Shown in pieces: positions 43,543 through 58,512 of a stretch of 64,000 nucleotides of DNA. The position numbers and the translations under genes were made by a program. The stretch is from Escherichia coli (GTDB lineage Bacteria; Pseudomonadota; Gammaproteobacteria; Enterobacterales; Enterobacteriaceae): NCBI RefSeq assembly GCF_003018255.1, contig NZ_CP027440.1; one strand, written 5' to 3'. Under the pieces are notes generated by a model that was not told where the DNA came from, made no database searches, and worked only from the letters and a program-made list of their open reading frames with translations. Within the stretch, counting starts at the first letter, position 1. Every line of letters starts with the position of its first letter.

Positions 43543-44268
43543 TTAAATCTCTACGTCGCGGTTGCAATCTTTCGAGTAAATATAGCTGAACGCTTCACCA
43601 CGCCCTACGCCATAACCAGCCTGTAAAGAATAAGCGCCCATAAAGATGTAATCGCCTTTTTTCACCGGGATCCAGTTATTGTCGAGGTTATAAACCCCCT
43701 GACCGGAAAGAATATAGGCACCGTGTTCCTGAACGTGGGTTTCGATATAACCGTGGCTGGCACCTGGTGCAAAAGAGAGGATATGCATGTTCATATCAAA
43801 ACCTAACTCTTTGGGCAGAAAATCCAGCAGAATAACATCGTCCATGCCTTCATAATGAATGCGTTCCAGTTCGCTGGCATTGCCAGAAACCAGCCACGGC
43901 GCATGACCTTCTACCGGAATATAGCGACGCTTATATAAAAAGATTTGGCTGTCTTCGGCCTGGGCGTTAACAAACGTCATTAAGGAGCCTGGCGGGCAAT
44001 AAAGATAGCCACCTTCACTTAAGGTAAATGTTTTCCCTTCGGCTTTGGCAGTGATATTTCCAGAGATCACATACAGGAACGTTTCAATGCCTTCGCCACC
44101 GAAGCCCTGTTGGTTGCCGCCGTTTTGATGCAGTGTGACCAGATAATCAACAAAAGAGGCACCCAGCTTTGGCGTGGAGAGGATTGTCGCGTCACAATTT
44201 TCAAAGCCCGGAATAATATTTTTTACCAGACCGTCTGGTGTTAACAGTGCGAAATTACCGTGTTTCAC
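43543..44268 (-). CDS. allE: (S)-ureidoglycine aminohydrolase with its native start destroyed; the longest ORF restarts at internal GTG (Val21)
   Basis: The cupin ORF matches AllE/YlbA. In-frame codons 2-20 (GYLNNVTGYREDLLANRAI) persist up to 44325. The start-codon position (44326-44328) reads AAG and is preceded by TAA and TGA. Confidence 0.8.
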   Translation of the reverse strand: MKHGNFALLTPDGLVKNIIPGFENCDATILSTPKLGASFVDYLVTLHQNGGNQQGFGGEGIETFLYVISGNITAKAEGKTFTLSEGGYLYCPPGSLMTFVNAQAEDSQIFLYKRRYIPVEGHAPWLVSGNASELERIHYEGMDDVILLDFLPKELGFDMNMHILSFAPGASHGYIETHVQEHGAYILSGQGVYNLDNNWIPVKKGDYIFMGAYSLQAGYGVGRGEAFSYIYSKDCNRDVEI

Positions 44269-44319
44269 AATCGCACGGTTAGCCAGTAAATCTTCGCGGT
44301 AACCGGTGACGTTATTTAA

Positions 44320-44332
44320 ATATCCCTTTTAT
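44320..44332. repeat. attL core
   Basis: ATATCCCtTTTAT. A 7-bp perfect identity (ATATCCC) is shared with attR, 13 bp with one mismatch. Confidence 0.7.
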
Positions 44333-44410
44333 CAAATAGTGTTTTTTGCTGTTTCATAATGTTTCAGGTCGTTCATTATGTTTTTGATTATCAACGGATT
44401 TGCCATTTTT

Positions 44411-44450
44411 CTTGTTTCAGCTTGTTTCACGTTGTAGCGCTTTGTGCAAC
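44411..44450 (+). promoter_or_regulatory. Four 10-bp-phased TTGT(nn)CA repeats on the attL-side arm
   Basis: cTTGTTTCAg cTTGTTTCAc gTTGTagcgc tTTGTGCAac. Confidence 0.45.
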
Positions 44451-44453
44451 GAT

Positions 44454-44479
44454 CGGTGTAGTTAATGGTGTAGTCAATT
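44454..44479 (+). repeat. Tandem arm-type site, probable integrase arm-binding (left copy)
   Basis: CGGTGTAGTTAATGGTGTAGTCAATT is identical to 58414-58439. Confidence 0.55.
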
Positions 44480-44500
44480 GTGATGACCGGAATCAAAATT

Positions 44501-45730
44501 ATGAGCAGAGCACTTAACAAACTGAGTGACACACAGCTAAGGAAAATCAACGGCACACCCGCCCAAAAAACAGCCTTTCTTAATGACGGTGGAAACCTGA
44601 GCGTCAGGCATTCAACCAGCGGCCTTTTAACCTGGTATTTCACATACAGGGCCGGAACGGGAAGAGGGACACAACCTGAACGCGTTAAGCTGGGAAATTA
44701 TCCCGATCTGAGCCTGAAAGCAGCCAGGGAAAAAGCCGCACAGTGTCGCGCATGGCTGGCTGAGGGGAAAAATCCACGCTATGAACTGAATTACACCATG
44801 CAGGAAGCGTTAAAGCCTGCAACGGTTGGCGATGCGCTCACCTACTGGCTTGAGTCGTACGCAAAGGAAAAGCGCACAGATTACGAATCACTGAAAAGCC
44901 GGATCAATAAAAACATAATCATCAAAATTGGTGCTATGCCGCTGGATAAATGCGAGCTACGGCACTGGCTGGCCTGTTTTGATCAGGTGGCAAAGCGAAC
45001 ACCTGTTACTGCCGGATTCTTGCTACAGACATGCAAACAGGCGCTTAAATTCTGCCGTAGGCGGCGCTATGCAATCAGCAACGTTCTGGACGATCTGAAC
45101 GTGGCGGACGTTGGGAAAAAACCGGATATAAGCGAACGTGTCTTAAGCACCAAAGAACTGGGCGAGTTATTGCAGGCGCTGGATAAAAAAATATTTTCTC
45201 CTTACTACGTCGCGTTAATCCGCCTCCTGATTGTCTTCGGAGCCAGGACGGTAGAACTGAGGTTATCGGAGATCAGCGAGTGGGATTTTACCGAAATGCT
45301 ATGGACCGTTCCGAAGGAGCACAGCAAAACGAAGGTTGCAATATTCCGGCCCATACCGGAAGCGATCCTGCCGTTCGTCACGCGGCTGGTGGAGCAGAAC
45401 AGGCACACGGGCTTATTACTGGGGGAAGTGAAACAGGAGGCTAGCGTATCGCAGTACGGCAGATTAGCGCACAGGAGGCTAAAACACCTTCAATGGTCAT
45501 TGCATGACATCCGGCGCACCTTTACAACGATGCTGAATGATTTGGGCGTGGATCCTCACGTCGTGGAGCAGCTTACAGGTCATCAGATGCCAGGGATGCA
45601 ACGAGTCTATAACCACTCCCGTTATCTCGATGCGAAACGTGATGCGCTGGATATGTGGACGGAGCGGTTAGGGATACTGGCGGGAGCACATGAAAACGTA
45701 ACCACGCTACCAGTAACCAGAATAAAATAA
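44501..45730 (+). CDS. int: Tyrosine integrase, P4-like (N-terminal arm-binding domain)
   Basis: MSRALNKLSDTQLRKI...LSVRHS..G.LTWYFTYR N-terminus typical of P4-type integrases. C-terminal HDIRRT...GH....Y catalytic region. The ORF track begins 7 codons earlier at GTG 44480. Confidence 0.9.
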   Translation: MSRALNKLSDTQLRKINGTPAQKTAFLNDGGNLSVRHSTSGLLTWYFTYRAGTGRGTQPERVKLGNYPDLSLKAAREKAAQCRAWLAEGKNPRYELNYTMQEALKPATVGDALTYWLESYAKEKRTDYESLKSRINKNIIIKIGAMPLDKCELRHWLACFDQVAKRTPVTAGFLLQTCKQALKFCRRRRYAISNVLDDLNVADVGKKPDISERVLSTKELGELLQALDKKIFSPYYVALIRLLIVFGARTVELRLSEISEWDFTEMLWTVPKEHSKTKVAIFRPIPEAILPFVTRLVEQNRHTGLLLGEVKQEASVSQYGRLAHRRLKHLQWSLHDIRRTFTTMLNDLGVDPHVVEQLTGHQMPGMQRVYNHSRYLDAKRDALDMWTERLGILAGAHENVTTLPVTRIK

Positions 45731-45770
45731 TTTTTTTCGTGTTTTTTCAGTATGCGCATACTGGATAAGT

Positions 45771-45825
45771 GCACAGATACAACGTGAAACAATGTGCAAC
45801 AACGTGACACAATCATGAACAAGAG
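45771..45825 (-). promoter_or_regulatory. Five 10-bp-phased TTGT repeats (inverted orientation) in the int-alpA gap
   Basis: ACAA recurs at 45779, 45789, 45799, 45809 and 45819. The run includes ACAACGTGAAAC and ACAACGTGACAC. Confidence 0.45.
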
Positions 45826-46094
45826 GCCAAAAAGAATACAGATTTATAAGTTACTGATTTTTATTGCTCAACTGGTTTTTTATACATTAGCGAATTACGC
45901 GTTAAAGCGTGCGAAAAAAGGCATAAAACAAGATTTTATGCCTTTGTATTAACATGAATTTAAATGATTTTATCCTGATTATTCCTCTTTCTGTAAACCA
46001 TACGACATCAACATTTGCCATTCACCACACTAGCGGGAACAATACGACACAATAAGACACCTGATGACTCTTTAAGAAACGAAAGGGGGCAATA

Positions 46095-46283
46095 GTGTTA
46101 AGCACTGATCGGTTTATACGTGAAAAAGAATGCGAAAAGCTAACAGGCCTTAGCCGCTCATGCCGCTACCGCCTGGAAAAGGCCGGACAATTCCCATCAC
46201 GTCGTAAACTTGGCGGGCGTTCTGTTGGCTGGTCTTTATCTGAGGTTTTGGCCTGGAAGGATAGCTGCAAGGCAGTTCACTAA
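46095..46283 (+). CDS. alpA: AlpA-family (MerR-like/excisionase-type) regulator
   Basis: 62-aa ORF with a GTG start after AAGGGGG. The pattern RFIREKECEKLTGLSRSCRYRLEKAGQFPSRRKLGGRSVGWSLSEVLAW is typical of AlpA. Confidence 0.85.
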   Translation: MLSTDRFIREKECEKLTGLSRSCRYRLEKAGQFPSRRKLGGRSVGWSLSEVLAWKDSCKAVH

Positions 46284-46424
46284 AAAGACTGGCGGCACAC
46301 AGTCGCCACACATCCACTAATACAGAGATATAACTATGAAGATTGAATATGCGCCCGAACGTGGGCGGGGATTCGTTCGCCCTGGTGAAACTGAAAAACA
46401 ACAAAATTGGGGTTTTTCAGGCAT

Positions 46425-46452
46425 AAAAAAAGCGGCCCCGATATGGAGCCGC
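46425..46452 (-). terminator. Rho-independent terminator for the leftward arc-like operon
   Basis: On the minus strand, GCGGC-loop-GCCGC followed by T7. It lies inside the 248-aa plus-strand ORF, which argues against that ORF. Confidence 0.55.
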
Positions 46453-46526
46453 CTTTCTGAACAATTAACCTGCTGCGCCTTATGTGTATGTGATCCCAAA
46501 CATAAGCACGGGGATGATAGCCGCTA

Positions 46527-46724
46527 TCAGGCTGGTGGGCAATTCCTGTTTTGTCCGTATTGCGCCGCCATTTTCGCTCGTTCAGAGCGCGAATATTTTT
46601 TTAGAAACTCATCAAGGACAAAAGCGCATGGTGCGAATCTTTCTGATTCATGCTCGAGCGCCATATTTTCGTGCTCTCTGTTCGTTTTTTGCGATGGTGT
46701 ATCGCTTGATTCTTTGTTGGTCAT
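46527..46724 (-). CDS. Hypothetical 65-aa protein, second gene of the leftward operon
   Basis: ATG preceded by AGGT. Followed about 70 nt later by the minus-strand terminator. No family was recognised. Confidence 0.4.
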   Translation of the reverse strand: MTNKESSDTPSQKTNREHENMALEHESERFAPCAFVLDEFLKKYSRSERAKMAAQYGQNRNCPPA

Positions 46725-46781
46725 TGTGTGTACCTGTAAAGCAATGCGCCGTAGTACCTCACACCACGGCGCTGATAGTTT

Positions 46782-46973
46782 TTATCCTTTGGGGTCTATG
46801 CCGCGCCGCTTTAGTTCAGTGCGCCCCAACTCTTTAAGCCAGTTGGCTAGGCTTATGCCGTCGCTCTGTGCTTCTTTGTCGAATTGCTCTTTTAGCTCTG
46901 GAGAAATTCGCATTCTGAATTGTGGGGATTGCCCGTCCCCTTTAGGGCTTTTATCGCGTTTGATTGTTGACAA
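46782..46973 (-). CDS. Arc-like ribbon-helix-helix repressor
   Basis: SPQFRMRISPELKEQFDKEAQSDGISLANWLKELGRTEL aligns by eye with P22 Arc MPQFNLRWPREVLDLVRKVAEENGRSVNSEIYQRVMESF. The TTG start at 46973 follows AGGTGG; the ORF-track start at 47054 would put the operator palindromes in coding sequence. Confidence 0.6.
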   Translation of the reverse strand: MSTIKRDKSPKGDGQSPQFRMRISPELKEQFDKEAQSDGISLANWLKELGRTELKRRGIDPKG

Positions 46974-47016
46974 GTGGCCACCTATTAAATTAGCCTTTCT
47001 ATTGTTAGGTGGCCAC
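46974..47016. promoter_or_regulatory. Twin palindromic operators (GTGGCCAC) in the divergent control region
   Basis: ATTGTTGACAAGTGGCCACCTA (core 46974-46981) and ATTGTTAGGTGGCCACCTTA (core 47009-47016), 35 bp centre to centre. Confidence 0.4.
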
Positions 47017-47107
47017 CTTAACACAAGAGCACTTAAAAAAGCAAAGCCCCGCAAGTGCCATTACCACTCGCAGGGCTTCTAACCAACAACGTAAACGAGG
47101 AGCCGTT

Positions 47108-47308
47108 ATGGTTGCCGTAAATCATATACCACACCTTGTACACACACAAACTGCCTTTGTGTGGCGTTTTCTGGCCCTGAGTGCCGGAGAATCTCAAATC
47201 ATCCACGTAACCGCCTGGACGGAACGCGAAGCGCGTAACCGTTGCCCGTCCGGTTGTGTTGCTGTATTTGCCGCCCGTATTCGTCAGGGGGAAACCTATG
47301 CACAATAA
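47108..47308 (+). CDS. Icd-like (host cell division inhibitor-like) small protein, first gene of the rightward operon
   Basis: ATG after GAGGAG gives 66 aa. The motif ..VWRFLALSAGESQIIHVTAWTEREARNRCP.GCVAVFAARI resembles Icd-like proteins of P4-type elements (from memory). Confidence 0.65.
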   Translation: MVAVNHIPHLVHTQTAFVWRFLALSAGESQIIHVTAWTEREARNRCPSGCVAVFAARIRQGETYAQ

Positions 47309-47528
47309 AACCACACCGGACGCAGCAGAAGAAGCAATGCAAATACTGATACGTGCGCTCGTTGATGTTACCCACATGGTGGAGATTATGGAGAGAAAAT
47401 CACAGTCGGAGCACGACAAAAGAAAACTTAAAACAATAAAAATAATTGCCAAAAACTCGCTGATAAAAGTTACAGACATCCTTAATGAGGACATTAAAAG
47501 AATAAGGGAGAAAATTTGTGATGCATAA
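47298..47528 (+). CDS. Hypothetical 76-aa helical protein
   Basis: ATG after GGGGGAAACCT. Overlaps neighbouring genes in operon style. Confidence 0.5.
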   Translation: MHNKTTPDAAEEAMQILIRALVDVTHMVEIMERKSQSEHDKRKLKTIKIIAKNSLIKVTDILNEDIKRIREKICDA

Positions 47529-47748
47529 AATCCCTTTTGAAGTATTAATCCACTCTGAAAACGCATTAATTAAAGCACGCGAAATGAATGCGTTGTTAAT
47601 TAAATTAATTGAAGTGCCGGAAGGTGGTGAGGAATCAGGTGTATTAATGTTTGCAGCCATTCAGACATTACTATCGCCTGTTATTGATGAACTGGATAAG
47701 GCAATGGCAATTCACGAAAATAATAACGCGCCCCACACCGGAGAATAA
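47518..47748 (+). CDS. Hypothetical 76-aa protein
   Basis: Start overlaps the previous stop. No family was recognised. Confidence 0.5.
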   Translation: MMHKIPFEVLIHSENALIKAREMNALLIKLIEVPEGGEESGVLMFAAIQTLLSPVIDELDKAMAIHENNNAPHTGE

Positions 47749-47753
47749 AAATA

Positions 47754-48053
47754 ATGAAACTTAAATATTCTGGCTTAACTGCCAGTGGCAAAACTCGCAC
47801 TAAATTCATGCGCGGTGATATTTACCGCGACCAGTACGGCGGCACGGTAATGATTAAGGGCGTGGAGGAACGGCGCGTAACTTACCGCCGTGAAGGTTAC
47901 GAATATGATTGCGTGATGCCCGTTTATCAGTTCGACCGTGATTTTTCTCTGGTGCAGGCAGCGCAACGCAGCAAGCCCACCAGCAGGGAGAAAGCACGCG
48001 CCAATATTCAGGAAATAAAAAAGATGCTTAACGTATTCAGGGGTAAAAAATGA
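47754..48053 (+). CDS. DUF4222-like small protein
   Basis: 99 aa. The pattern YRD.YG..V.I.GVE..RVTYRREGY...CVMP...F.R.F recalls DUF4222 of P4-like islands (from memory). Confidence 0.55.
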   Translation: MKLKYSGLTASGKTRTKFMRGDIYRDQYGGTVMIKGVEERRVTYRREGYEYDCVMPVYQFDRDFSLVQAAQRSKPTSREKARANIQEIKKMLNVFRGKK

Positions 48054-49804
48054 AACTGGCACCGAACGTAAAACAGCAGTCACGCGGCATAAAACACAAA
48101 GAAACAGAAGTCATTATTTTTGCGGGTAGTGATGCCTGGTCACACGCAAAACAATGGCAGGAACATGACGCGCGTATGGCCGGAGATAATGAGCCTCCTG
48201 TGTGGCTTGGGGAGCAGCAGTTATCAGAACTGGATAAGCTGCAAATTGTGCCGGAAGGCAGAAAATCCGTGCGCATATTCAGGGCCGGATATCTTGCACC
48301 AGTAATGATAAAGGCGATTGGTCAAAAGCTGGCGGCGGCTGGTGTACAGGATGCAAATTTTTATCCTGAGGGTATGCACGGCAAGGAGGTGCAGAACTGG
48401 CGCGAATACCTGGCCCGTGAACGCCAGAATCTTTCTGATGGTCTGGTCATTGAGCTTCCGGTAAAGCAAAAGGCGCAACTTTCGCAGATGGCGGACAGTG
48501 AGCGCGCGCAGCTGCTTGCCGATCGCTTTGATGGCGTTTGCGTACATCCTGAAAGTGAAATTGTTCACGTATGGCGCGGCGGGGTATGGTGTCCGGTCAG
48601 CACAATGGAACTTAGCCGCGAAATGGTGGCGATCTATTCAGAGCACAGGGCCACTTTCAGCAAGCGCGTAATCAATAACGCCGTGGAAGCGTTAAAAGTT
48701 ATTGCCGAACCAATGGGCGAGCCGTCCGGCGATTTGCTGCCGTTCGCCAATGGTGCGCTTGACCTGAAAACGGGGGAATTTTCCCCGCACACGCCGGAGA
48801 ACTGGATCACCACGCACAACGGCATTGAGTACACGCCACCAGCACCAGGGGAGAATATCCGCGACAACGCGCCAAACTTTCATAAATGGCTTGAGCACGC
48901 AGCCGGAAAAGACCCGCGCAAGATGATGCGTATATGTGCCGCGCTGTACATGATTATGGCGAACCGGTACGACTGGCAGATGTTTATTGAGGCCACCGGA
49001 GACGGCGGGAGCGGTAAAAGTACATTCACACACATAGCCAGCCTTCTGGCAGGGAAACAGAACACGGTAAGCGCTGAAATGACATCGCTTGATGATGCTG
49101 GTGGACGTGCGCAGGTTGTCGGGAGTCGTCTTATCGTCCTGGCTGACCAGCCGAAATATACAGGCGAAGGAACGGGCATCAAGAAAATCACGGGCGGCGA
49201 CCCCGTGGAAATTAACCCGAAATATGAGAAGCGTTTTACGGCGGTAATCAGGGCGGTGGTGCTGGCTACCAACAATAACCCGATGATATTCACCGAACGG
49301 GCCGGAGGTGTGTCACGTCGTCGCGTAATTTTCCGTTTCGACAATATCGTCAGTGAGGCCGAAAAAGACAGGGAGCTACCGGAAAAGATTGCGGCTGAAA
49401 TCCCTGTCATTATCCGCCGATTGCTGGCGAACTTTACCGACCCTGAGAAGGCACGGGCTTTACTACTGGAACAGCGTGACGGTGATGAAGCTCTGGCAAT
49501 AAAGCAACAGACGGATCCGGTTATTGAGTTTTGCCAGTTCCTGAATTTTCTGGAGGAAGCACGCGGCCTGATGATGGGCGGCGGTGGCGATTCAGTGAAG
49601 TACACGACCAGGAACAGCCTTTACCGCGTCTATCTGGCGTTTATGGCATACGCAGGCAGGAGCAAACCGCTAAACGTGGCTGAGTTCAGCAAGGCCATGA
49701 AGCCAGCGGCGAAAGTTTACGGGCATGAATATATTACGCGAAAAGTTAAGGGAGTAACGCAGACCAACGCAATTACAACAGACGATTGCGACGCGTTTTT
49801 ATAA
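48050..49804 (+). CDS. P4-family primase / SF3 helicase replication protein (pri-rep)
   Basis: 584-aa ORF with Walker A GDGGSGKST and Walker B LIVLAD. D5-N-like region upstream. The iteron field follows immediately. Confidence 0.9.
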   Translation: MKLAPNVKQQSRGIKHKETEVIIFAGSDAWSHAKQWQEHDARMAGDNEPPVWLGEQQLSELDKLQIVPEGRKSVRIFRAGYLAPVMIKAIGQKLAAAGVQDANFYPEGMHGKEVQNWREYLARERQNLSDGLVIELPVKQKAQLSQMADSERAQLLADRFDGVCVHPESEIVHVWRGGVWCPVSTMELSREMVAIYSEHRATFSKRVINNAVEALKVIAEPMGEPSGDLLPFANGALDLKTGEFSPHTPENWITTHNGIEYTPPAPGENIRDNAPNFHKWLEHAAGKDPRKMMRICAALYMIMANRYDWQMFIEATGDGGSGKSTFTHIASLLAGKQNTVSAEMTSLDDAGGRAQVVGSRLIVLADQPKYTGEGTGIKKITGGDPVEINPKYEKRFTAVIRAVVLATNNNPMIFTERAGGVSRRRVIFRFDNIVSEAEKDRELPEKIAAEIPVIIRRLLANFTDPEKARALLLEQRDGDEALAIKQQTDPVIEFCQFLNFLEEARGLMMGGGGDSVKYTTRNSLYRVYLAFMAYAGRSKPLNVAEFSKAMKPAAKVYGHEYITRKVKGVTQTNAITTDDCDAFL

Positions 49805-49815
49805 TTTTTTGTAAA

Positions 49816-50047
49816 AGCCCTCTACCCCATCTACCTGAATGAAGTAAACGCATATTATTCAACATGATAAGTGGGTAGAGGGCTAGGTAGAAGGCTAATA
49901 AAAGCTCTCTACCCCTTCTACCTGATTTTATCAGTTTCAGGTAGCAGGGTAGACGGCAGGTAGAGGAGCCCAAAAAGCTATCTACCCGCTGAAAGCCGCG
50001 CCATTACTGACATGATGAGCATTCGGGTAGATGGGTAGAGGGGGGGG
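49816..50047. repeat. Putative replication origin: iteron field
   Basis: At least 12 GGTAGA/TCTACC hexamers. Perfect inverted repeats AGCCCTCTACCC (49816-27) / GGGTAGAGGGCT (49873-84) flank a 45-bp AT-rich spacer. A second inverted repeat is AGGTAGAAGG (49885-94) / CCTTCTACCT (49914-23). Confidence 0.6.
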
Positions 50048-50089
50048 AGGCACAACTAAAAACTTTTTAAACGAGGGGGGGGAAAATAA

Positions 50090-50404
50090 ATGCGCATACA
50101 TCAAAATCACTTAACAAATATGCCAGCCGAAAACATGAATCAGGGGCGACAAATGACCAAAATTCGCAGAGACAGAACACAGGCAAAATATAAAGCGTTA
50201 GACATGACAGAGCTTTCCTTAAAGGTGGCAATCAAAGCGATAGACCACCACACACGGGCAGGATACGCGAAGGAACATCCCGACCTGATAAGCGCATTCA
50301 TGACCACGGCGGCGGCAAACTTTGCCACGTTGACAGAACGTGAGATTGCCGAAGCGGAACAGGTAACAACCATCAACGTTAAAACCGGAGAGGTGGAATC
50401 ATGA
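50090..50404 (+). CDS. Hypothetical 104-aa protein
   Basis: ATG after GAGGGGGGGG. 4-nt overlap with ssb. Confidence 0.55.
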   Translation: MRIHQNHLTNMPAENMNQGRQMTKIRRDRTQAKYKALDMTELSLKVAIKAIDHHTRAGYAKEHPDLISAFMTTAAANFATLTEREIAEAEQVTTINVKTGEVES

Positions 50405-50811
50405 CAGCACAGATAGCCGCTTACGGGCGGCTGGTGGACGACCCGCAGGTAAAACAGACCAGCAAGGGCACACCGATGACGCTGGTTCGTATGGCGGTAT
50501 CGCTGCCATGCAGCCAGGCACATGACGGACAGGCGACGTTATGGTTATCGGTTATCGCATTTGGCAAACAGGCCGATTTCCTGGCTAAACATCAAAAAGG
50601 CGATGTTGCCAGCGTATCCGGCACGATGCAGGTAAGCCAGTGGACCGGACAGAACGGGGAAACGCGGCGGGGGTATCAGGTTATTGCAGACAGCGTAATC
50701 AGTGCCCGCGCGGCACGTCCAGGCGGGAACAGACGCAAAACCACAGGCACACAGGGTAATCAGCCACCAGCGGGAGGCGATGACCCTTACGGTGACGGTA
50801 TTCCGTTCTGA
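50401..50811 (+). CDS. ssb: Single-stranded DNA-binding protein
   Basis: 136 aa with an OB-fold N-terminus, a Gly/Pro/Gln-rich linker and the acidic tip DDPYGDGIPF. Confidence 0.85.
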   Translation: MTAQIAAYGRLVDDPQVKQTSKGTPMTLVRMAVSLPCSQAHDGQATLWLSVIAFGKQADFLAKHQKGDVASVSGTMQVSQWTGQNGETRRGYQVIADSVISARAARPGGNRRKTTGTQGNQPPAGGDDPYGDGIPF

Positions 50812-50821
50812 GGGGGTGACG

Positions 50822-51070
50822 ATGGTACATGACCGCATAGCGGAGGAACTCGAGGCAAAAGGCTTTTACCGGAGGGCGTCGGCGCGATGGGGTGAAGTCA
50901 TGCAACTGGTGGAGACAGACAAGGAACGGCATCAGGTTACGATGCGACGGCTGGAATGTTCCAGGAAGGCACAGAGGCCACCGGAGCCGCCAACGGAGAA
51001 CTACGCAGACCTGAGAAATGCAGTAAATCGCACTTACGCAGACATGGGGCTGAGCAAATTAGCAGAGTAG
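50822..51070 (+). CDS. PerC-family transcriptional regulator-like protein
   Basis: 82 aa with ATG after GAGGGGG. AEELEAKGFYRRASARWGEVM resembles the conserved PerC/Pch N-terminal motif (from memory). Confidence 0.6.
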   Translation: MVHDRIAEELEAKGFYRRASARWGEVMQLVETDKERHQVTMRRLECSRKAQRPPEPPTENYADLRNAVNRTYADMGLSKLAE

Positions 51071-51130
51071 GAATATCAGAACCACACCACGCAGCCGGAG
51101 CAATCCGGCTTTTTGTTATTTTTTGTAAAT

Positions 51131-51160
51131 TATTTGTTCGTGGTTGTTCCACGTTGTTCA
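51131..51160 (+). promoter_or_regulatory. Three 10-bp-phased TTGTTC repeats upstream of the capsid gene
   Basis: TTGTTCG TGG TTGTTCC ACG TTGTTCA. The 12-mer GTTCCACGTTGT is identical to the copy at 58384-58395. Confidence 0.45.
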
Positions 51161-51374
51161 CTGAGCGGATCGGCATATTTTACCCGAACTGAATCATGAT
51201 TATTCTCGCCCGTGGTGCCAGGACGCTGGGGCCACTTTCCCGCCTGTTAATGTGCTCGCCAATATTCATTACCAGGCGGGAAAACGATCGGTGCGATTGC
51301 TGATTTCCTTATGAAAAACGGTTGAGTGTTTGCCGCGTCCTGGAGTTCCTTACTTAACCCCAGGACTTTTTTTT

Positions 51375-52532
51375 ATGCCGAGAATAATCGAATTACGCCA
51401 GCAGAAAACCGCCATTAAAAATCAGATGCGCGACATGCTGGAGAACGCTGAAAAAGAAAACCGCAGTCTTAACGATGCTGAGGGCGCAAAATTTGACGAA
51501 TTACGCGCTAAAGCTGAATCCCTCGATAAAGACATTTCCCGCCTTGAAGCCATTGCAGACGAAGAGCGCAGCAAGCCAGGTAAAAGCAGCCAGACCACTG
51601 ACCCCGCAGAACTACGCAGCTACATTCTGACAGGTGAAACCCGCGCATTAAGTACAGGCGTTCCCGCTGATGGTGGTTATACCGTTATCCCCGAACTGAA
51701 CACCGAAATCATGCGAATGCTGGCGGATGAATCCACCATGCGCCGCATCTGTACCGTGAAAAAAATCAGCAGCAACGAGTTTAAGCAGCTTGTTTCCGCT
51801 GGCGGTGCGACCGTTAACCACGGTGAAGAGGGTAAGGCACGCGAACAGACCAGCACCCCGCAGATTAACGAGGTGAGCATTAAGCTGTATCCGGTCTATG
51901 CGTACCCGCGCACCACACAGGAAATCGTGGATTTTTCCGATGTGGACATCCTTTCATGGCTGACGGGTGAGATTGGCGACACCTTCACGGAAACCGAAGA
52001 AAGCGATCTGGTTGTGGGCGACGGTGACAAAAAAGCAAAAGGTTTTTTATCCGTACCCCGTGCAGAGAAGAACGACAAAGAGCGTGATTTTGGTACGTTG
52101 CAGGTAATTAAACCTTCCGAATCTCTGGCGTGGACATCTGCGGACCCGCTGATCGACCTGAAATTTGCATTACGTAAAAAATACCGCAAAAACGCGGTCT
52201 GGGTGGTTAACTCCACGACGGCGGCAAAACTCCAGAAGGTGAAGAACGCGAACGGTGATTACATCTGGCGTGACCGTTTACAGGCGGGTGATCCTGATAC
52301 GTTGCTGGGCCTTCCGGTCGAATATCTGGAGTTTATGCCTGATAACGTTATTGCCCTGGGTGACTTCAAACGCGGTTACTACATTGTTGATCACGAAACA
52401 GGTGTTCGCACCAGACCGGACAACCTCACAGAGCCGGGCTTCATCAAAATTTTCACGCAGAAATATTTAGGCGGTGGCGTGGTGGATTCGAACGCGATCA
52501 AGATTCTGGAACTGCCACAGGACGACGATTAA
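51375..52532 (+). CDS. HK97-fold major capsid protein with N-terminal coiled-coil (delta/scaffold-like) domain
   Basis: 385 aa from ATG 51375. N-terminus IELRQQKTAIKNQMRDMLENAEKENRSLNDAEGAKFDELRAKAESLDKDISRLEAI, followed by a Phage_capsid-like body. Confidence 0.9.
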   Translation: MPRIIELRQQKTAIKNQMRDMLENAEKENRSLNDAEGAKFDELRAKAESLDKDISRLEAIADEERSKPGKSSQTTDPAELRSYILTGETRALSTGVPADGGYTVIPELNTEIMRMLADESTMRRICTVKKISSNEFKQLVSAGGATVNHGEEGKAREQTSTPQINEVSIKLYPVYAYPRTTQEIVDFSDVDILSWLTGEIGDTFTETEESDLVVGDGDKKAKGFLSVPRAEKNDKERDFGTLQVIKPSESLAWTSADPLIDLKFALRKKYRKNAVWVVNSTTAAKLQKVKNANGDYIWRDRLQAGDPDTLLGLPVEYLEFMPDNVIALGDFKRGYYIVDHETGVRTRPDNLTEPGFIKIFTQKYLGGGVVDSNAIKILELPQDDD

Positions 52533-52542
52533 CAGCATACAG

Positions 52543-52571
52543 AAGGGGCTTAAAAGCCCCTTTAGTGTTTT
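52543..52571 (+). terminator. Strong hairpin with T-rich tail between the capsid and protease genes (possible attenuator)
   Basis: AAGGGGCTT-AA-AAGCCCCTT followed by TAGTGTTTT. Confidence 0.4.
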
Positions 52572-53144
52572 ATGGGTGAAAAAATTATGAAGAGTATGGA
52601 AATCCGGTCATCGGAAATCACCACCAGCGGAGCCGGTACGCTGACGGGCTACGTTGTTCGCTGGGATAAGCTTTCAGAACTGTTATGGGGTGAGTTTTAC
52701 GAAAAATTCCAGCGGGGGGCGTTTACTGAATGGCTTGCGGCGGGTAATGACGTTCGCGGCCTGTATGAGCATGACCACAGCATGTTACTGGGGCGCACCC
52801 GTTCCGGCACGCTGAAACTGGAAGAGGACGAAACAGGGTTACGCTTTGAACTGACCCCACCGGATACCAGTACAGGGCGCGACGTTATCGAACTGGTTAA
52901 GCGTGGGGACATCTCGGGGATGAGCTTTGGCTTTCGCTCCCGTAAGGATGTATGGGATACCACAACAGATCCATGCGTGCGCACCGTGCTGGTGGCGGAA
53001 CTGTACGAAATTACCGTTACATCGGTACCGGCTTACCCCGATTCCGGCGTGGAGCTGGCCCGCCGTTCCCTGTATGAGCAGCACCCCGAAAAAATGCCGC
53101 GTGCGGATAATCGCCGCTGGTGGGTGGATTTAGCGGGGGTGTGA
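52572..53144 (+). CDS. HK97-family prohead protease
   Basis: 190 aa. The pattern G.L.GY...W...S......F.E.F..GAF........DV..L..H......LGR...GTL.L.ED..GL.F...L is typical of this family. Alternative starts at 52587 and 52596. Confidence 0.85.
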   Translation: MGEKIMKSMEIRSSEITTSGAGTLTGYVVRWDKLSELLWGEFYEKFQRGAFTEWLAAGNDVRGLYEHDHSMLLGRTRSGTLKLEEDETGLRFELTPPDTSTGRDVIELVKRGDISGMSFGFRSRKDVWDTTTDPCVRTVLVAELYEITVTSVPAYPDSGVELARRSLYEQHPEKMPRADNRRWWVDLAGV

Positions 53145-53145
53145 T

Positions 53146-54357
53146 ATGTGGCCTTTCAGAAGAAAAAAAGAGCAGCGCAGCATGACGCTTGATAAGTTTA
53201 TGGCGCTGGCTGGCACATCGAACACGGGGGCGGGTGAGTACGTATCATCGGGGACAGCGGAATCACTGCCCGCCGTCATGAACGCCGTGACGGTCATCTC
53301 TGAGGCGGTGGCTACCATGCCGTGTTACCTGTACCTGGTACGCAATGAGAAGGGGAAGGAGGCCCGCGAGTGGCTTGATTCTCATCCGGTCGATCACATC
53401 CTCAACGAGCGCCCGAACGCGTGGCAGACTCCCTACCAGTTTAAGCGAATGATGATCCGCCACTGCCTGTTAAACGGTAATGCTTATGCGGTGATTCAGT
53501 GGGGGCGTGATGGTTTTCCGGTGGCTTTACATCCTTACCCGCCGCAGTCGGTGAACGTGGAGCAGACAGGTGATCATAACTGGCGCTACTGCATCACTGA
53601 CGCCTACACCGGAAACACCCGCAACTATTTACCGTGGGAGGTTCTCCACCTTCGTTACTCCACGGATGACGGTTTTATGGGGCGCTCACCTGTAACCATC
53701 TGCCGCGAATCGCTGGGGCTTGGGCTGGCCCAACAACGCCACGGCGCGAGCGTGATGCGTGATGGCATGATGGCGGCAGGGGTTATCACGTCAGGCGAAT
53801 GGCTGGACGGCGTGAAGGGCAAACAGGCATTAGCCGCACTGGAACGCTACAAAGGGGCCAGAAACGCCGGAAAAACGCCCATCCTTGAAGGGGGGATGAG
53901 CTATCAGCAGCTGGGCATGAGTAATCAGGATGCCGAATGGCTGGCCTCCCGTCGCTTCACCATTGAAGACATCGCCCGAATGTTCAACGTCTCGCCGATT
54001 TTTTTGCAGGAATACAGCAACAGCACCTACAGCAACTTCAGCGAGGCAAGCCGCGCATTTCTCACCATGACGATGCGCCCGTGGCTGGCGAACTTTGAGC
54101 AGCAGATAAAAAACGCCCTGCTGGTGGCCTCGCCTGTACCTGGTATCCGGTATCAGGTGGAGTTTGACAGCGCGGACCTGTTACGGGCCACACCTGGCGA
54201 ACGCTTTGCCACCTATGAACGCGGCATCAAATCCGGCGTTATGTGCCCGAACGAAGCCCGCGAACGTGAAGGGCTGTCCCCGCGTGATGGTGGTGATGAG
54301 TTCAGCCAGGCATGGAAACAGGAAGTAAAAATCAGCGAGGGAGAAAAACCGGAATGA
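53146..54357 (+). CDS. HK97-family portal protein
   Basis: 403 aa, adjacent to the protease and similar to phage portals. Confidence 0.9.
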   Translation: MWPFRRKKEQRSMTLDKFMALAGTSNTGAGEYVSSGTAESLPAVMNAVTVISEAVATMPCYLYLVRNEKGKEAREWLDSHPVDHILNERPNAWQTPYQFKRMMIRHCLLNGNAYAVIQWGRDGFPVALHPYPPQSVNVEQTGDHNWRYCITDAYTGNTRNYLPWEVLHLRYSTDDGFMGRSPVTICRESLGLGLAQQRHGASVMRDGMMAAGVITSGEWLDGVKGKQALAALERYKGARNAGKTPILEGGMSYQQLGMSNQDAEWLASRRFTIEDIARMFNVSPIFLQEYSNSTYSNFSEASRAFLTMTMRPWLANFEQQIKNALLVASPVPGIRYQVEFDSADLLRATPGERFATYERGIKSGVMCPNEAREREGLSPRDGGDEFSQAWKQEVKISEGEKPE

Positions 54358-54692
54358 ACATAGGGCGACTGCGTGACAGGATAACGATTCAGACCCTGAA
54401 ACAGACCAGGGATATAACCGGCGAAATACTCGAAACGTGGGAGGACGGTCACACACTCTGGGCAAGCGTGAACATGGTCAGCAGCAAGGAGGCCATTTCA
54501 TCGGGCGCAGAGCTGGCGATTGGTACCGTAAGGATCTGGATACGGTACCGGAAGGACATCAACGCCACCTGCCGGATAAAGGTCAGTACGGGGCCGCTGG
54601 CGGGGCGTGTACTGAATATCATCGGGCAGCCGCTGCCGGATGCCGCCAGGACACGCCTTGAAATTCTTTGTCGTGAGGGCGCGGAAAAATGA
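54354..54692 (+). CDS. Head-tail joining / head closure protein
   Basis: 112 aa starting MNIGRLRDRITIQ, typical of the head-tail joining family. ATGA overlap with the portal gene. Confidence 0.8.
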   Translation: MNIGRLRDRITIQTLKQTRDITGEILETWEDGHTLWASVNMVSSKEAISSGAELAIGTVRIWIRYRKDINATCRIKVSTGPLAGRVLNIIGQPLPDAARTRLEILCREGAEK

Positions 54693-54985
54693 CAGAAGAA
54701 CTTATCACCCTGGAAGAAGTGAAACTCCATTGCCGCATCGATGGCGACGATGAAGACCAGTTAATCAGCGGATACATTGCCGCATCGCTTGAGGCGTGCC
54801 AGATACACATAGGCAGGCGCTTTGATGACGGGCTGGAGTTCACGCCAGCCATAAAGATTGGCTGCATGATGTTTATCGCTCACCTGTATGAAAATCGCCA
54901 GATTGTCGCGGATAACGCAAAAACACGCGTACCCATGACGATAGGCGCACTCTGGACGGCTTACCGTGATGTGGGGGTGTACTGA
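54689..54985 (+). CDS. gp6-like head-tail connector protein
   Basis: 98 aa starting LITLEEVKLHCRIDGDDEDQLISGYIAAS, typical of this family. Confidence 0.8.
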   Translation: MTEELITLEEVKLHCRIDGDDEDQLISGYIAASLEACQIHIGRRFDDGLEFTPAIKIGCMMFIAHLYENRQIVADNAKTRVPMTIGALWTAYRDVGVY

Positions 54986-55425
54986 TGCCGTGGCAACCAT
55001 TAAGACGATGCACAGAACCAGGCTGTAACAGGCGCGTTAAATCCGGCAAGTGTGAGGAGCACAGGCGGGCGGCATGGCGTGCAGAGGATGCCAGACGAGG
55101 ACACCGCCGCGCGCGTGGATATTCCAGACAGTGGGACAAATACCGCGCCATGTATCTGAGTAAAAACCCGTTATGCGTGCGATGCCTTGAGAAGGGGATA
55201 TATACGCCCGCCGTGGTGGTGGATCACATTATCCCGATTAATGGCGGTGATGATGTTCTCTTCTGGCCCGAATGGAACCATCAACCATTGTGCCAGGCGT
55301 GTCATAACCAGAAAACGAAATGGCTTGATCCGGCAACAAAAAGCAAGCGTGCCGCAGGTGGATTTCGTGAAGAGGAAGAACGGGCTGCTAACCGCAATAA
55401 CTGGATGTATGACGCTGATGAATGA
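54985..55425 (+). CDS. HNH endonuclease (packaging-associated)
   Basis: 146 aa with two Cys pairs and DHIIPINGG....WNHQPLCQACHNQKT. Located directly upstream of terS. Confidence 0.9.
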   Translation: MPWQPLRRCTEPGCNRRVKSGKCEEHRRAAWRAEDARRGHRRARGYSRQWDKYRAMYLSKNPLCVRCLEKGIYTPAVVVDHIIPINGGDDVLFWPEWNHQPLCQACHNQKTKWLDPATKSKRAAGGFREEEERAANRNNWMYDADE

Positions 55426-55591
55426 GCGGGAACAAAACCGCCTTATCCGTGGACTTATAAGGCAGCGTGACGCATGGAAGACACAGGAAACAGGGCATAA
55501 AGATAAAGCGTCAGGACGCGCAGAACGCATCACAGCGAAGCGATTAACCGACCGTGACCGCGAGGTTATGGAATGTTTCCGCAATCGCTGA
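55409..55591 (+). CDS. Possible 60-aa basic protein
   Basis: ATG overlaps the HNH gene end. No family was recognised; weak evidence. Confidence 0.3.
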   Translation: MTLMNEREQNRLIRGLIRQRDAWKTQETGHKDKASGRAERITAKRLTDRDREVMECFRNR

Positions 55592-55713
55592 TGAGGCTGT
55601 ATGACGGGGTGGGGGGCGTTTTCAGGACAAACCCGACCCCGCCGGGCACCGAACGCCTCCTCAAATTTTTATGCACGGGAATTTTTTGAAAAATAATCTG
55701 GCGAAAAATAAGC
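55592..55713. other. Candidate cos region between HNH and terS
   Basis: 122-bp non-coding gap. It has a G-rich block GACGGGGTGGGGGGCG (55603-55619), a partly complementary GACCCCGCC, and then an AT-rich tract. Confidence 0.35.
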
Positions 55714-56070
55714 ATGGCAAGACCACCGAAAGCCCCCGCCTACCTGGATGATATCGCCGTGAAGCAGTGGCGGGAAAAATCTAGGCAGCTTGCGGAACGG
55801 GGAGACCTGACCCCCGCCGACTGGAGCAATCTGGAACTGTATTGTGTCAACTACTCCATTTACCGGAAAGCCGTTGCAGACCTTGCGGCGCGCGGGTTCA
55901 GCATTGTTAACAGTCAGGGCGGCGAGAGCAGAAACCCCGCATTAAGCGCAAAATCCGACGCTGAAAGAGTGATGATAAAAATGGCCTCTTTGCTCGGTTT
56001 TGACCCGATAAGCCGCCGTAAAAATCCACCGGAAACAGAAGAAGAGGACGAGCTTGACCGCCTGGAATAA
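55714..56070 (+). CDS. Terminase small subunit (P27 family)
   Basis: 118 aa. The pattern PKAP.YLD..A...W.......E.G.LT..D...LE.YC..Y..YR.A matches this family. Confidence 0.85.
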   Translation: MARPPKAPAYLDDIAVKQWREKSRQLAERGDLTPADWSNLELYCVNYSIYRKAVADLAARGFSIVNSQGGESRNPALSAKSDAERVMIKMASLLGFDPISRRKNPPETEEEDELDRLE

Positions 56071-57715
56071 GTACGCAGAAGACGTAAAAACGGGCAAAAT
56101 TCCGGCCTGTAAACGGCTGAAACAGGCCGTTAAACGGTACTTTTCGGACCTTGAAAGCCCCCTTTACACGTTCGATCGTGAGGTTGTGGAGCGGTTTATT
56201 GCCTTTTCCAGGGTGTGCCCGCACGTAAAAGGGCCGATGCGTGGCAGACCCATTGAGCTGGAGCCGTGGCAGCAGTTCGCCTTTGCGTGCATCCTCGGCT
56301 TTAAGGTTAAGGCCACCGGACGGCGCAAATACACGAGCGCCTTTATCGAAGTGCCGCGCAAAAATGCGAAATCCACGACCGCCGCGATTCTGGCTAACTG
56401 GTTTCTGATTATGGAGAACGGGCAGCAGGATATTTACACCGCAGCGGTGAGCCGTGACCAGGCGCGGATCGTTTTTGATGATGCGCGTCAGATGTGCCTT
56501 TTATCCCGACCGTTACGCAGGCGGGTGAATATTCAGGCCCACAAGGTGATGCACCCGAAAAGCAACAGCCTGTTAAAGCCGCTGGCAGCAAAAGCGGCAA
56601 CCATCGAGGGAACAAACCCCAGCCTTTCCATCGTGGACGAATACCACCTACACCCCGATAACGGCGTTTATTCCGCGCTTGAGCTGGGGATGGGCGCACG
56701 TCCCGAAGGGCTGTTATTTGCCATTACCACATCGGGCAGTAACGTCGTTTCAACCTGTAAACAGCACTATGATTATTGCTGCCAGATCCTGGACGGCGAA
56801 GAGGTCAACGATTCAATTTTTGTGCTGATTTACGAGCTGGACGACGAAAACGAGGTTGATGATCCGGCGATGTGGATAAAGGCTAACCCTAACATCGATG
56901 TTTCCGTGGATCGTGAAAAACTGGCCTCAACCATCCAGAAAGCGCGGGGTATTCCGTCGCAATGGGTGGAGATGATGACAAAGCGATTTAATATCTGGTG
57001 CCAGGGGGCTACCCCGTGGATGGGTAACGGCGCATGGGCTGAGTGTGCCGGAACGTTCACGGAGGAAGATTTACACGGGCAGGAGTGTTACGCGGGGCTG
57101 GACTTATCATCAACCAGCGATATTTCCAGCGTGTGCTATGCCTTTCCGGTCGGTAAAAATATCATGCTGGTTTCCCGTCATTATCTGCCGGAGTTCCAGC
57201 TACAGAACCCCGCCAATAAAAACCGCGCTGTCTATCGCCAGTGGGCTAAAGCGGGCTGGATACGCACAACGCCAGGTGACTGCATTGATTACGACCGGAT
57301 CAGAGATGACATCATGCAGGATGCGGAGAAATTTAATATCAGGCTGGTGGGCTTTGATACGTGGAACGCCACGCATCTCAGGACGCAATTACAGGGGGCT
57401 GGTTTTGAGGTGGAGCCGTTCCCGCAAACCTACCTCAGATTCAGTCCGGCGGCGAAATCGTTCGAAGTTTTTGTTAACCGCAGGGTGATTGTGCATCGTG
57501 GCGATCCGGTGTTGTCCTGGTCGATGAGTAACGTCGTGATGCAGAGTGACGCGAACGCCAATATCAAGCCGAACAAGAAAAAATCACCGAACAAGATAGA
57601 CCCGAGCGTAGCGGCGCTGATGGCGTTTGGTACATTCCAGGCAGAGCATGAGGATTTTGCTTTTGATATAAGCGACAGCCACCGCCAGAAACTGGAAGAA
57701 TTTAGCGGGGTGTAA
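56054..57715 (+). CDS. Terminase large subunit
   Basis: 553 aa with a TTG start after AGAGGA. Contains an ATPase region (VPRKNAKST, IVDEYH) and a C-terminal nuclease region. Confidence 0.9.
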   Translation: MTAWNKYAEDVKTGKIPACKRLKQAVKRYFSDLESPLYTFDREVVERFIAFSRVCPHVKGPMRGRPIELEPWQQFAFACILGFKVKATGRRKYTSAFIEVPRKNAKSTTAAILANWFLIMENGQQDIYTAAVSRDQARIVFDDARQMCLLSRPLRRRVNIQAHKVMHPKSNSLLKPLAAKAATIEGTNPSLSIVDEYHLHPDNGVYSALELGMGARPEGLLFAITTSGSNVVSTCKQHYDYCCQILDGEEVNDSIFVLIYELDDENEVDDPAMWIKANPNIDVSVDREKLASTIQKARGIPSQWVEMMTKRFNIWCQGATPWMGNGAWAECAGTFTEEDLHGQECYAGLDLSSTSDISSVCYAFPVGKNIMLVSRHYLPEFQLQNPANKNRAVYRQWAKAGWIRTTPGDCIDYDRIRDDIMQDAEKFNIRLVGFDTWNATHLRTQLQGAGFEVEPFPQTYLRFSPAAKSFEVFVNRRVIVHRGDPVLSWSMSNVVMQSDANANIKPNKKKSPNKIDPSVAALMAFGTFQAEHEDFAFDISDSHRQKLEEFSGV

Positions 57716-57728
57716 TGAGGTCAGCAGC

Positions 57729-58010
57729 ATGACAGAAGCCGAAATACTGCGATTAATCCGCCGCGTCTCTGGAATCAGCCAGCAGGCTGACGAACAGACC
57801 ACGCAGCCGGACAGCGTGACAGCCGAAAATTATGCGCGTGTTGTTGCTGAGGTGATGCGCCGTGATGGTATCCAGCTTAATGATGCGGATATGCGCGACA
57901 TACGGATCCGCGTTCTTGAAATGCTGGCCTACAATCGCCGTGTAGAGATGTACAGGGAGAAAGAGAAAATTACGTACAACTGGAAGAAGCCGGAGCGGTT
58001 ACGGCGGTAA
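57729..58010 (+). CDS. Hypothetical 93-aa protein, last ORF of the island
   Basis: ORF follows terL by 13 nt. No family was recognised. Confidence 0.5.
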   Translation: MTEAEILRLIRRVSGISQQADEQTTQPDSVTAENYARVVAEVMRRDGIQLNDADMRDIRIRVLEMLAYNRRVEMYREKEKITYNWKKPERLRR

Positions 58011-58370
58011 CGTGTTGATTTAAAGGCGGCTCAATTTTGAGCCTCGTAACTGGTTGATATTTCCGGCAACCTCAATTTGAGGAGAGCGGAAACATCATCC
58101 CTCACATTCTGAATGGTCATAATGACCACGCAGGCCATCGAGGCAACCATAGCGATCATCGTTACGGTTGGAGCTTTCCGCCATTGGTGGAAAAGGTGCA
58201 CATCTGGATCATCATTACGGTGATCAAGGGTATGTAAAACCCACCAGCCTGATTAAAGGTTAACCGGAAAAAAAATCCGGTAGCCCCGTTATGGGGATCC
58301 CCATATCGACATTAACGCCCCTCATGAATTGGTGCGCTTCCCCCTGGAAAGATTACCCGCCTGTATATTT

Positions 58371-58400
58371 CTTGTGTCTATTTGTTCCACGTTGTTTCAT
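58371..58400 (+). promoter_or_regulatory. Three 10-bp-phased TTGT repeats on the attR-side arm
   Basis: cTTGTGTCTA tTTGTTCCAC gTTGTTTCAT. Confidence 0.45.
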
Positions 58401-58413
58401 ACAGTGCACCGAA

Positions 58414-58439
58414 CGGTGTAGTTAATGGTGTAGTCAATT
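58414..58439 (+). repeat. Tandem arm-type site (right copy)
   Basis: CGGTGTAGTTAATGGTGTAGTCAATT is identical to 44454-44479. Confidence 0.55.
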
Positions 58440-58512
58440 TGCGATTTTTGGCACTTTTTGTAGTGCGGGTTATTTAATTAAATCAATGTGTTATTGAAAA
58501 TAAGTTATAGAT

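Follow-up and report, generated by a model that had tools for sequence, protein, structure and literature searches.

The 64,000-nucleotide (nt) stretch of Escherichia coli DNA analysed here (contig NZ_CP027440.1; the window) contains, at 50822-51374, a perC gene followed by the non-coding spacer in front of the major capsid gene of a phage-inducible chromosomal island (PICI). Our comparisons make it probable that the PerC protein is a modulator of host genes, encoded on an exchangeable module, not a dedicated activator of the capsid operon, and that this operon has a control region of its own. A sequence-only reading of the same stretch had suggested that PerC may be the island's late (capsid-operon) activator. 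More tentatively, as a possibility that we rate just short of even, we propose that the 304-nt spacer is a complete late-control device of the capsid-forming PICIs (cf-PICIs) of Enterobacterales, that its leader is a new RNA switch gating capsid synthesis, and that PerC is a passenger. The novel material in 50822-51374 is this non-coding control module, the leader RNA more so than perC.

The open reading frame (ORF) map and Pfam matches place the island at ~44311-58480 (14.2 kb), between flanks that read as allE/ylbA and allC. Its early genes encode a P4-type integrase, AlpA (Pfam Phage_AlpA), a DUF4222 protein, a D5-type primase, Ssb and PerC. The late genes encode the capsid, an HK97-type protease, the portal, head-tail adaptors, an HNH protein, TerS and TerL. 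Genes for tails or lysis were found neither in the ORF map nor among the Pfam matches of the 14.2 kb. As a cf-PICI we counted an element with int, alpA and primase genes plus a capsid-to-TerL set, without tail or lysis genes, and with 10-16 kb between the attachment (att) repeats. The gene set, the absence of tail and lysis genes and the identity of the packaging proteins (head, protease, portal, HNH, TerS and TerL are 97-100% identical in amino acid (aa) sequence to their Sakai Sp7 counterparts) identify the island as a cf-PICI of the EcCIEDL933 type. This type is described in bioRxiv 10.1101/2022.09.08.507074, and published work has demonstrated helper-phage induction via alpA and small capsids for EcCIEDL933.

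The perC gene (50822..51070, + strand; ATG at 50822, TAG ending at 51070) encodes 82 aa. It starts 10 nt past the stop codon of ssb (50401-50811), which lies immediately 5', and has the ribosome-binding site GAGGGGG. The sequence-only reading was right that this PerC-like ORF stops 304 nt short of the capsid ATG (positions 51071-51374 make up the spacer, exactly 304 nt), and the hidden Markov model (HMM) of Pfam PF06069 (PerC) bore out the family assignment, matching residues 1-78 of 82 with 122.3 bits (E=1e-35) against a gathering cut-off of 22.6 bits. PHROG 994 also matches (E=1.6e-38), and across hundreds of E. coli genomes RefSeq labels the product 'PerC family transcriptional regulator'. 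A protein word-index search returned close E. coli relatives only, and an exhaustive PerC profile search returned 226 clusters without genomic context. An alignment of 14 homologues has 34 invariant columns, including I6-E9 and K13-A19. In an AlphaFold2 (AF2) model, helices are predicted at residues 5-13, 16-29, 33-50 and 61-74; they would form a helical hairpin resembling tetratricopeptide repeats (TPR), and a recognisable DNA-reading fold is not seen in the model. A sequence search of solved structures with PerC gave nothing significant. High identity and ssb-perC-terminator synteny, within an island carrying a P4-like integrase, alpA and a primase, place the protein in the PchE group, group 3 of the Pch proteins. 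We conclude that perC is a genuine PerC-family gene of this group and the last cistron of a primase-ssb operon with its own terminator. The gene is already known: it is a near-copy of the EcCICFT073 gene, and descriptions of PerC/PchE genes from E. coli PICIs date back to 2004-2012. The literature already covers pchE on OI-51 as well as PerC genes carried by Gram-negative PICIs (PMC3378721; PMC11773190).

The island is a mosaic. Its late half (51092-58019) has 97% DNA identity to Sakai Sp7, which is OI-51 or EcCIEDL933, and the stretch 47723-51114 has 92-94% DNA identity to the classical PICI EcCICFT073. The junction (51092-51114) lies inside the perC terminator: the CFT073 homology extends as far as 51114, and the Sakai homology sets in at 51092. 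Because an EcCICFT073-like early half and an EcCIEDL933-like late half meet there, the terminator reads as a recombination joint between island modules. The same terminator, AGCCGGAG(C/A)AATCCGGCT with a T-run, follows perC identically or nearly so in the window, in loci L014 and L016, in CFT073 and in Sakai, and its hairpin recurs 3' of perC in L016, L014 and CFT073. A perC that comes after ssb and is closed by this terminator is common to cf-PICIs and classical PICIs. The PerC-like protein of EcCICFT073 (WP_000233305.1, C_RS07000) likewise has 82 aa and the C-terminal end …MGLSKLAE, with 98.8% aa identity; its gene occupies the same place after ssb and before the same terminator, and identity is 98% for the neighbouring pri and 96% for ssb. 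EcCICFT073 differs in its late module, which consists of a small ORF, another major-capsid gene and a head-decoration gene, with no TTGTTC array upstream. PchE (ECs_1588, from the prophage-like element Sp7 of E. coli O157:H7 Sakai = OI-51/CP-933C = EcCIEDL933) belongs to the same group and island type, and the capsid operon and leader there are 97-99% identical to those of the window. The Sakai PchE protein, however, is only 80% identical, has 90 aa and ends in …IWRNYPDS, and between pchE and the leader stands ECs_1589, a gene of 74 aa, along with a second terminator. The description of perC as the last gene before the capsid operon therefore holds in the window but not in Sakai Sp7/EcCIEDL933, where ECs_1589 (phrog_1957) intervenes; in most related cf-PICIs perC is wholly absent.

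A late activator is expected wherever its late promoter is shared, and its cognate promoter site should move or co-vary with it. PerC shows neither pattern. We scanned IMG/VR for the leader hairpin described below and obtained 76 loci with this hairpin 120-150 nt upstream of a capsid homologue. An HMM built from 65 PerC family representatives detected PerC within 3.5 kb upstream in only four of these 76 cf-PICI loci (62 of the 76 have at least 1.5 kb of upstream sequence). The distant cf-PICIs of Rosenbergiella, Citrobacter, Erwinia and Gilliamella (capsid 66-74% identical) keep the conserved box and three 10-bp-phased repeats before their late genes, and PerC was not found in them by tblastn. 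In L017 (strain JP538), which represents a second type of E. coli cf-PICI, AlpA and Int are 92% and 84% identical to those of the window, and the same triple TTGTTC array is present without perC; the slot holds a ProQ/FinO gene and a phrog_1957 gene. This perC-less arrangement occurs in 44 complete E. coli genomes, and L018 likewise has the array and lacks PerC. Another cf-PICI, the 16.5-kb 'Escherichia phage vB_KppS-Ant' (LR881103, deposited with the source 'induced prophage'), has the complete control module, yet a search of it for PerC gave no match even at E<=10. Conversely, EcCICFT073 carries the window's perC allele together with a 95%-identical AlpA, yet the region upstream of its different late module is array-less; L016, with a PerC 73% identical, likewise has no TTGTTC array before its late genes. 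PerC was present in only two of 50,697 phage genome records, so the phage records offer no context for perC. From these cases of array without PerC and PerC without array, we infer that neither predicts the other and that the perC allele goes with the replication module. In every PICI examined, perC lies after the replication genes, directly after ssb in five of seven ssb-perC contexts.

The spacer itself is strongly patterned. As claimed earlier, it contains a phased TTGTTC array, with copies spaced at exactly 10 bp (51134, 51144 and 51154). A common layout is seen in all 68 distinct upstream regions, in which the TTTGTAAATTA box is followed by three phased repeats, promoter elements and a hairpin, H1. 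The promoter elements in these 68 regions are GTTTAC/GTTTTC (-35-like), 16 nt, TAT(C/G)TT (-10-like) and ~6 nt before H1, and the alignment of the 68 leaders gives the consensus promoter TTTAC(A/C)-16-TAT(C/G/T)(T/C)T. A promoter scan of L017 returned TTTACA-16-TATGTT unprompted. The corresponding elements in the window, TTTACC (51179-51184) and TATTCT (51201-51206), score 8/12; the promoter scan of the window spacer was empty because this score is under the tool's threshold. Transcription is predicted to start near 51212, the first base of H1, and the TTGTTC repeats would then be centred at approximately -76, -66 and -56, which are typical upstream activator positions. We also considered a promoter with the third TTGTTC as -35 and TATTTT as -10, but rejected it in favour of the downstream one supported by the 68-leader alignment. 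The word 'promoter' is absent from both cf-PICI preprints consulted (one of them bioRxiv 10.1101/2022.09.08.507074), in which the packaging-operon promoter is not described, and no account of a 304-nt late-control device was found in the literature searched.

Downstream of the predicted start, the leader RNA of the window is predicted to be highly structured (-67.9 kcal/mol, z=-4.5). The common type of H1, GTGGCACTCAGACGTGAGCCGCCAC (GUGGCACUCAGACGUGAGCCGCCAC), is identical in 75 of the 76 IMG/VR loci. The H1 of the window, GUGGUGCCAGGACGCUGGGGCCAC, differs from it by three compensatory pairs that keep the stem and the GACG loop. The stem P2 follows directly after H1. Of 37 diverse leaders, 34 can form it, and 26 different basal helices occur among them, such as GGCCGUUUAA/UUAAACGGCC and GUCCACCUGG/CCAGGUGGAC, compared with CCCGCCUG/CAGGCGGG in the window; P2 thus covaries strongly across these leaders. 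In the last hairpin, H3, the 3' arm holds a Shine-Dalgarno-like GGA or AGGA across leaders, and in the window H3 and the U8 abutting the AUG resemble an intrinsic terminator. Between the 5' arm of H3 (51335-51343) and positions 51218-51226 of H1 complementarity is perfect, which provides an alternative pairing. In the common type, the loop and one arm of H1 and the 5' arm of H3 read GACGUGA/UCACGUC; in the window both sides have changed in concert, to CCAGGACGC/GCGUCCUGG. Because H1 can pair alternatively with the 5' arm of H3, the leader can, as predicted from these complementarities, take two exclusive folds in which the ribosome-binding site is hidden or exposed. A long-range stem closing the first fold (51198-51208/51379-51389) was dropped; its 5' arm precedes the predicted start, so the stem is probably not in the RNA. 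No Rfam family matched the leader (51212-51374), the only match at E<=1 in 44000-60000 being a weak unrelated one at 45881. The leader was found in three of the 50,697 phage records, one of which is the satellite vB_KppS-Ant.

The proposed late-control device would thus consist of the invariant box, a triple repeat whose sequence differs with the AlpA type, the weak sigma-70 promoter and the structured leader RNA. In this scheme the final hairpin would hide the ribosome-binding site, and pairing of H1 with the 5' arm of H3 would free it; in the window, the same pairing would also break the terminator-like hairpin.

Which protein reads the repeats is suggested by their distribution. The pattern TTGT-N6-TTGT-N6-TTGT occurs seven times in the window against 0.01 expected, each time in a non-coding part of the island (Table 1), and the array positions are also filled in Sakai Sp7, Shigella, L017 (JP538) and CFT073. 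Among the IMG/VR loci, the repeat sequence varies between constant flanks, and the repeat class tracks the AlpA subfamily (8/8, 5/8 and 6/6). Arrays in both att arms and before alpA fit a regulatory recombination directionality factor. We give an even chance to AlpA as the protein that binds the TTGT arrays. AlpA has been called the master regulator of Gram-negative PICIs, is required for PICI lytic gene expression and has been reported to regulate its own expression positively; an alpA-overexpressing strain was used to drive EcCIEDL933 reproduction for particle purification (cf-PICI preprint). The excisionase-type regulators P2 Cox, P4 Vis, TorI and lambda Xis similarly have ~10-bp phased repeats at att arms and promoters, and AlpA structurally resembles TorI and Xis (PMC10803314). 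By comparison with these regulators, binding of the repeats by AlpA is only putative, and in PICMI115, in contrast, plasmid-expressed AlpA left satellite gene expression unchanged (PMC10803314). A role of AlpA as a Q-like antiterminator was rejected. The 'AlpA' of Pseudomonas aeruginosa, which is larger, Q-like and built of eight helices, has its helix-turn-helix contacts at residues 128-142 and shares the name alone with the 62-aa PICI AlpA, and we dropped the analogy. A search for repeated motifs common to the late upstream region of L016 and its int/xis region gave nothing usable.

Each att arm also carries, after its TTGT array, a tandem GGTGTAGTYAAT, seen as the 26-bp direct repeat CGGTGTAGTTAATGGTGTAGTCAATT at 44454-44479 and 58413-58438. 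This repeat is likely an integrase arm-type site, and the true island ends lie outside it, at ~44311 and ~58480.

Several observations weigh against the reading that we prefer. At the end of the early operon and just before the late promoter, perC occupies the classical place of a late regulator, and where the exact leader type occurs in E. coli, ssb-perC lies upstream in ~354/359 genomes. This association probably reflects shared descent because the islands are 95-99% identical; still, perC may have a contributory role in the E. coli islands. The assignment of AlpA to the arrays is not general, because in islands of other than the E. coli AlpA/Int type the triple array occurs at the late leader only: triple arrays near alpA or int were searched for in non-E. 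coli cf-PICIs, and none was found except in L062. Linkage could also be the source of the correlation between AlpA and array, and overexpression of alpA would also turn on the downstream perC, so that the roles of the two are not separated.

On balance, we consider it very unlikely that PerC is a dedicated late activator that binds the phased TTGTTC repeats and turns on the capsid operon. Its place just 5' of the late promoter, the activator function known for PerC/Pch proteins and the near-constant presence of perC upstream of the leader in EDL933-type E. coli islands would fit this role. They are set against arrays and leaders that do without PerC in 72 of the 76 IMG/VR loci, in the 44 L017-type E. 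coli genomes and in vB_KppS-Ant, and against the same PerC allele in EcCICFT073, downstream of which the array is absent. Alleles only 80% (Sakai) and as much as 98.8% (CFT073) identical show that perC follows the replication module and not the capsid module; moreover, arrays also occur in the att arms, the expected place of an excisionase, and no DNA-reading fold is apparent in the AF2 model. Small regulators at the end of the early genes, before the late operon, are familiar from lambda (Q), P2 and P4 (Ogr and delta) and Mu (C and Mor). These are, in contrast to PerC, indispensable and have cognate promoter sites; PerC is missing from most elements that share the late promoter, and no DNA-reading fold is apparent in its model.

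A general anti-silencer of the PchA kind that, with no need of a specific site, helps to open the AT-rich promoters of the island, including the late promoter, useful but dispensable, appears less improbable, although we still regard it as unlikely. PchA counteracts silencing by H-NS and binds broadly to AT-rich DNA (PMC4764244), positions 51111-51135 of the window are ~90% A+T, the int-alpA spacer has 35% GC, and a dispensable helper would match the patchy distribution of perC. The late operon, however, has 50-57% GC and would be an atypical H-NS target, and PchE is expressed basally and at a lower level upon prophage induction (PMC6265319), the opposite of what a lytic-phase helper would show. 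We think it somewhat less likely again, though not by comparison with a capsid-operon activator, that the target of PerC is the helper phage, or other resident prophages, whose transcription it would tune for the benefit of the satellite. In other PICIs, the slot beside PerC contains either a Mor-family activator (L021/L022) or, in L019/L020, a second PerC together with a Q-type antiterminator, and satellites are able to trans-regulate helper late genes, P4 delta being an example. PerC is nearly missing from true phages (the two records above), which leaves it with no apparent phage partner. In published work on EcCICFT073, c1503 alone blocked lambda among individually cloned genes downstream of ori, and inclusion of perC among these genes is unstated in the text consulted.

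Published data on relatives point instead to the host, in agreement with our preferred reading of PerC as a host-gene modulator on an exchangeable module. PchE strongly represses csgD, curli and biofilm (PMC6265319). Its expression is basal and drops more than six-fold on SOS/prophage induction (PMC6265319); by analogy, this would be a lysogenic-conversion pattern, not that of a lytic-phase activator. EPEC (enteropathogenic E. coli) PerC and EHEC (enterohaemorrhagic E. coli) PchA/B/C, which activate LEE1/ler in the enterocyte effacement locus (LEE) and counteract H-NS silencing, share PF06069 and the small helical N-terminal core. They belong, however, to another group, on a virulence plasmid or lambdoid prophages and not in a PICI replication module. 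Unlike them, the PchE-type proteins, including the CFT073 homologue, do not activate LEE1, according to Porter 2005 as cited in PMC11773190. The PICI EcCIMP1 also carries a PerC homologue, EcCIMP1_025, regarded as an accessory gene; it differs in being only ~40% identical to the EDL933 and CFT073 proteins, and it represses (silences) LEE1 in Citrobacter rodentium (PMC11773190). These data make cross-talk of PerC with the host plausible, though not in a LEE-activating sense. The sequence-only reading had raised such cross-talk with virulence regulons: it finds support in the literature, in another form than the one raised, namely in the repression of csgD/curli by PchE and of LEE by the EcCIMP1 homologue.

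We therefore picture perC as part of the exchangeable replication module of E. coli PICIs, where it would fill a variable accessory slot before the late genes. Its product would most likely be a small TPR-like modulator that works through protein contacts or anti-silencing on host genes, with targets such as those of its relatives: csgD/curli, as for PchE, or the LEE, as for other alleles. Control of the capsid operon would be self-contained, with the box, three phased repeats probably read by AlpA, the weak sigma-70 promoter and a leader RNA whose final hairpin would hide the ribosome-binding site.

Table 1. Features of the perC-capsid region, the TTGT arrays and related loci (window positions unless a locus is named).
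Feature	Coordinates	Strand	Basis
perC, PchE group, final gene of the pri-ssb early operon	50822..51070	+	Pfam, identity to relatives, ssb spacing
Intrinsic terminator AGCCGGAGCAATCCGGCT + T-run, closing the early operon; also mosaic crossover point	51093..51118	+	Terminator scan
Conserved box TTTGTAAATTA	51122..51132	+	Near-invariant in 68/68 distinct cf-PICI upstream regions and genome loci
Three TTGTTC repeats, 10-bp spacing, putative activator (AlpA?) sites	51134..51159	+	Pattern search, AlpA-subfamily tracking
Weak sigma-70 promoter, predicted, TTTACC-16 nt-TATTCT	51179..51206	+	Aligned with L017 promoter, conserved geometry
Leader hairpin H1 GUGGUGCCAGGACGCUGGGGCCAC, GACG loop	51212..51235	+	Folds
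Leader stem P2, 17-nt arms	51236..51283	+	Inverted repeat I1
Hairpin H3, AGGA Shine-Dalgarno in 3' arm, then U8 up to AUG	51337..51374	+	Inverted repeat I3, folds
Major capsid gene, opening the capsid/packaging operon, which extends up to terL at 57715	51375..52532	+	Pfam Phage_capsid E=1.6e-61
Phased TTGT repeats, left att arm	44412..44445	+	Pattern search
Five phased TTGT repeats between int and alpA	45779..45822	-	Pattern search
Two-repeat TTGT copy just upstream of alpA	46037-46052	-	Pattern search
alpA, excisionase-type master regulator	46095..46283	+	Pfam Phage_AlpA E=5e-18; PHROG 'excisionase and transcriptional regulator'
Phased TTGT repeats, right att arm	58372..58397	+	Pattern search
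phrog_1957 genes	L001:8170-8394; L003:3663-3926; L004:9013-9273; L006:9494-9769; L017:7712-7960		
ssb-perC fusion deletion	L002:9173-9331 (Shigella flexneri) and protein P0043		

Some further observations concern the slot between the replication genes and the leader. A phrog_1957 (ECs_1589-like) gene of 74-91 aa lies just 5' of the capsid leader in 28 of 70 IMG/VR loci and is absent from the window. In Gilliamella the phased repeats stand upstream of this gene, which, because they precede it, appears to be the first late gene there. Between ssb and the late region, several PICIs and cf-PICIs (L014, L015, L017 and L018, ~7095-7721) encode an RNA-binding protein of the ProQ/FinO family; its placement just 5' of a structured leader RNA is suggestive. 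Two E. coli PICI loci (L019/L020, 7001-10435) have two PerC paralogues and a Phage_antitermQ protein, and in two others (L021/L022, 7001-7794) PerC adjoins a Mor-family activator, so that the slot after the replication genes seems to gather transcription factors. We also noted a recurrent in-frame deletion that joins the first ~25 codons of ssb to the C-terminal part of perC in cf-PICIs that are otherwise intact; most of each gene is lost.

Elsewhere in the island, the DUF4222 protein (47754-48053, 99 aa) is 95% identical to RgdR (ECs1581), with RGD at residues 20-22; RgdR is an activator of LEE1/type III secretion and a repressor of motility (PMC3378721). All E. coli/Shigella PICIs examined have a DUF4222 gene directly 5' of the primase/replicase gene, and in the Citrobacter locus L004 a weaker homologue has the same place. 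A 288-nt gap separates HNH from terS (55426-55713). The linear vB_KppS-Ant record (L145 = LR881103) starts 22 nt 5' of terS (L145 positions 1-22), and the cos site is therefore probably in this gap. In the same record, many copies of GTGAACAC/GTTCACC in both orientations lie 3' of the primase gene (L145:11690-12100) and are probably replication-origin iterons.

Taken together, the comparative data turn the question of late control in cf-PICIs from PerC to AlpA and the promoter/leader module. If true, a leader RNA combined with AlpA-matched repeats could explain the timing of capsid production in capsid-forming satellites.

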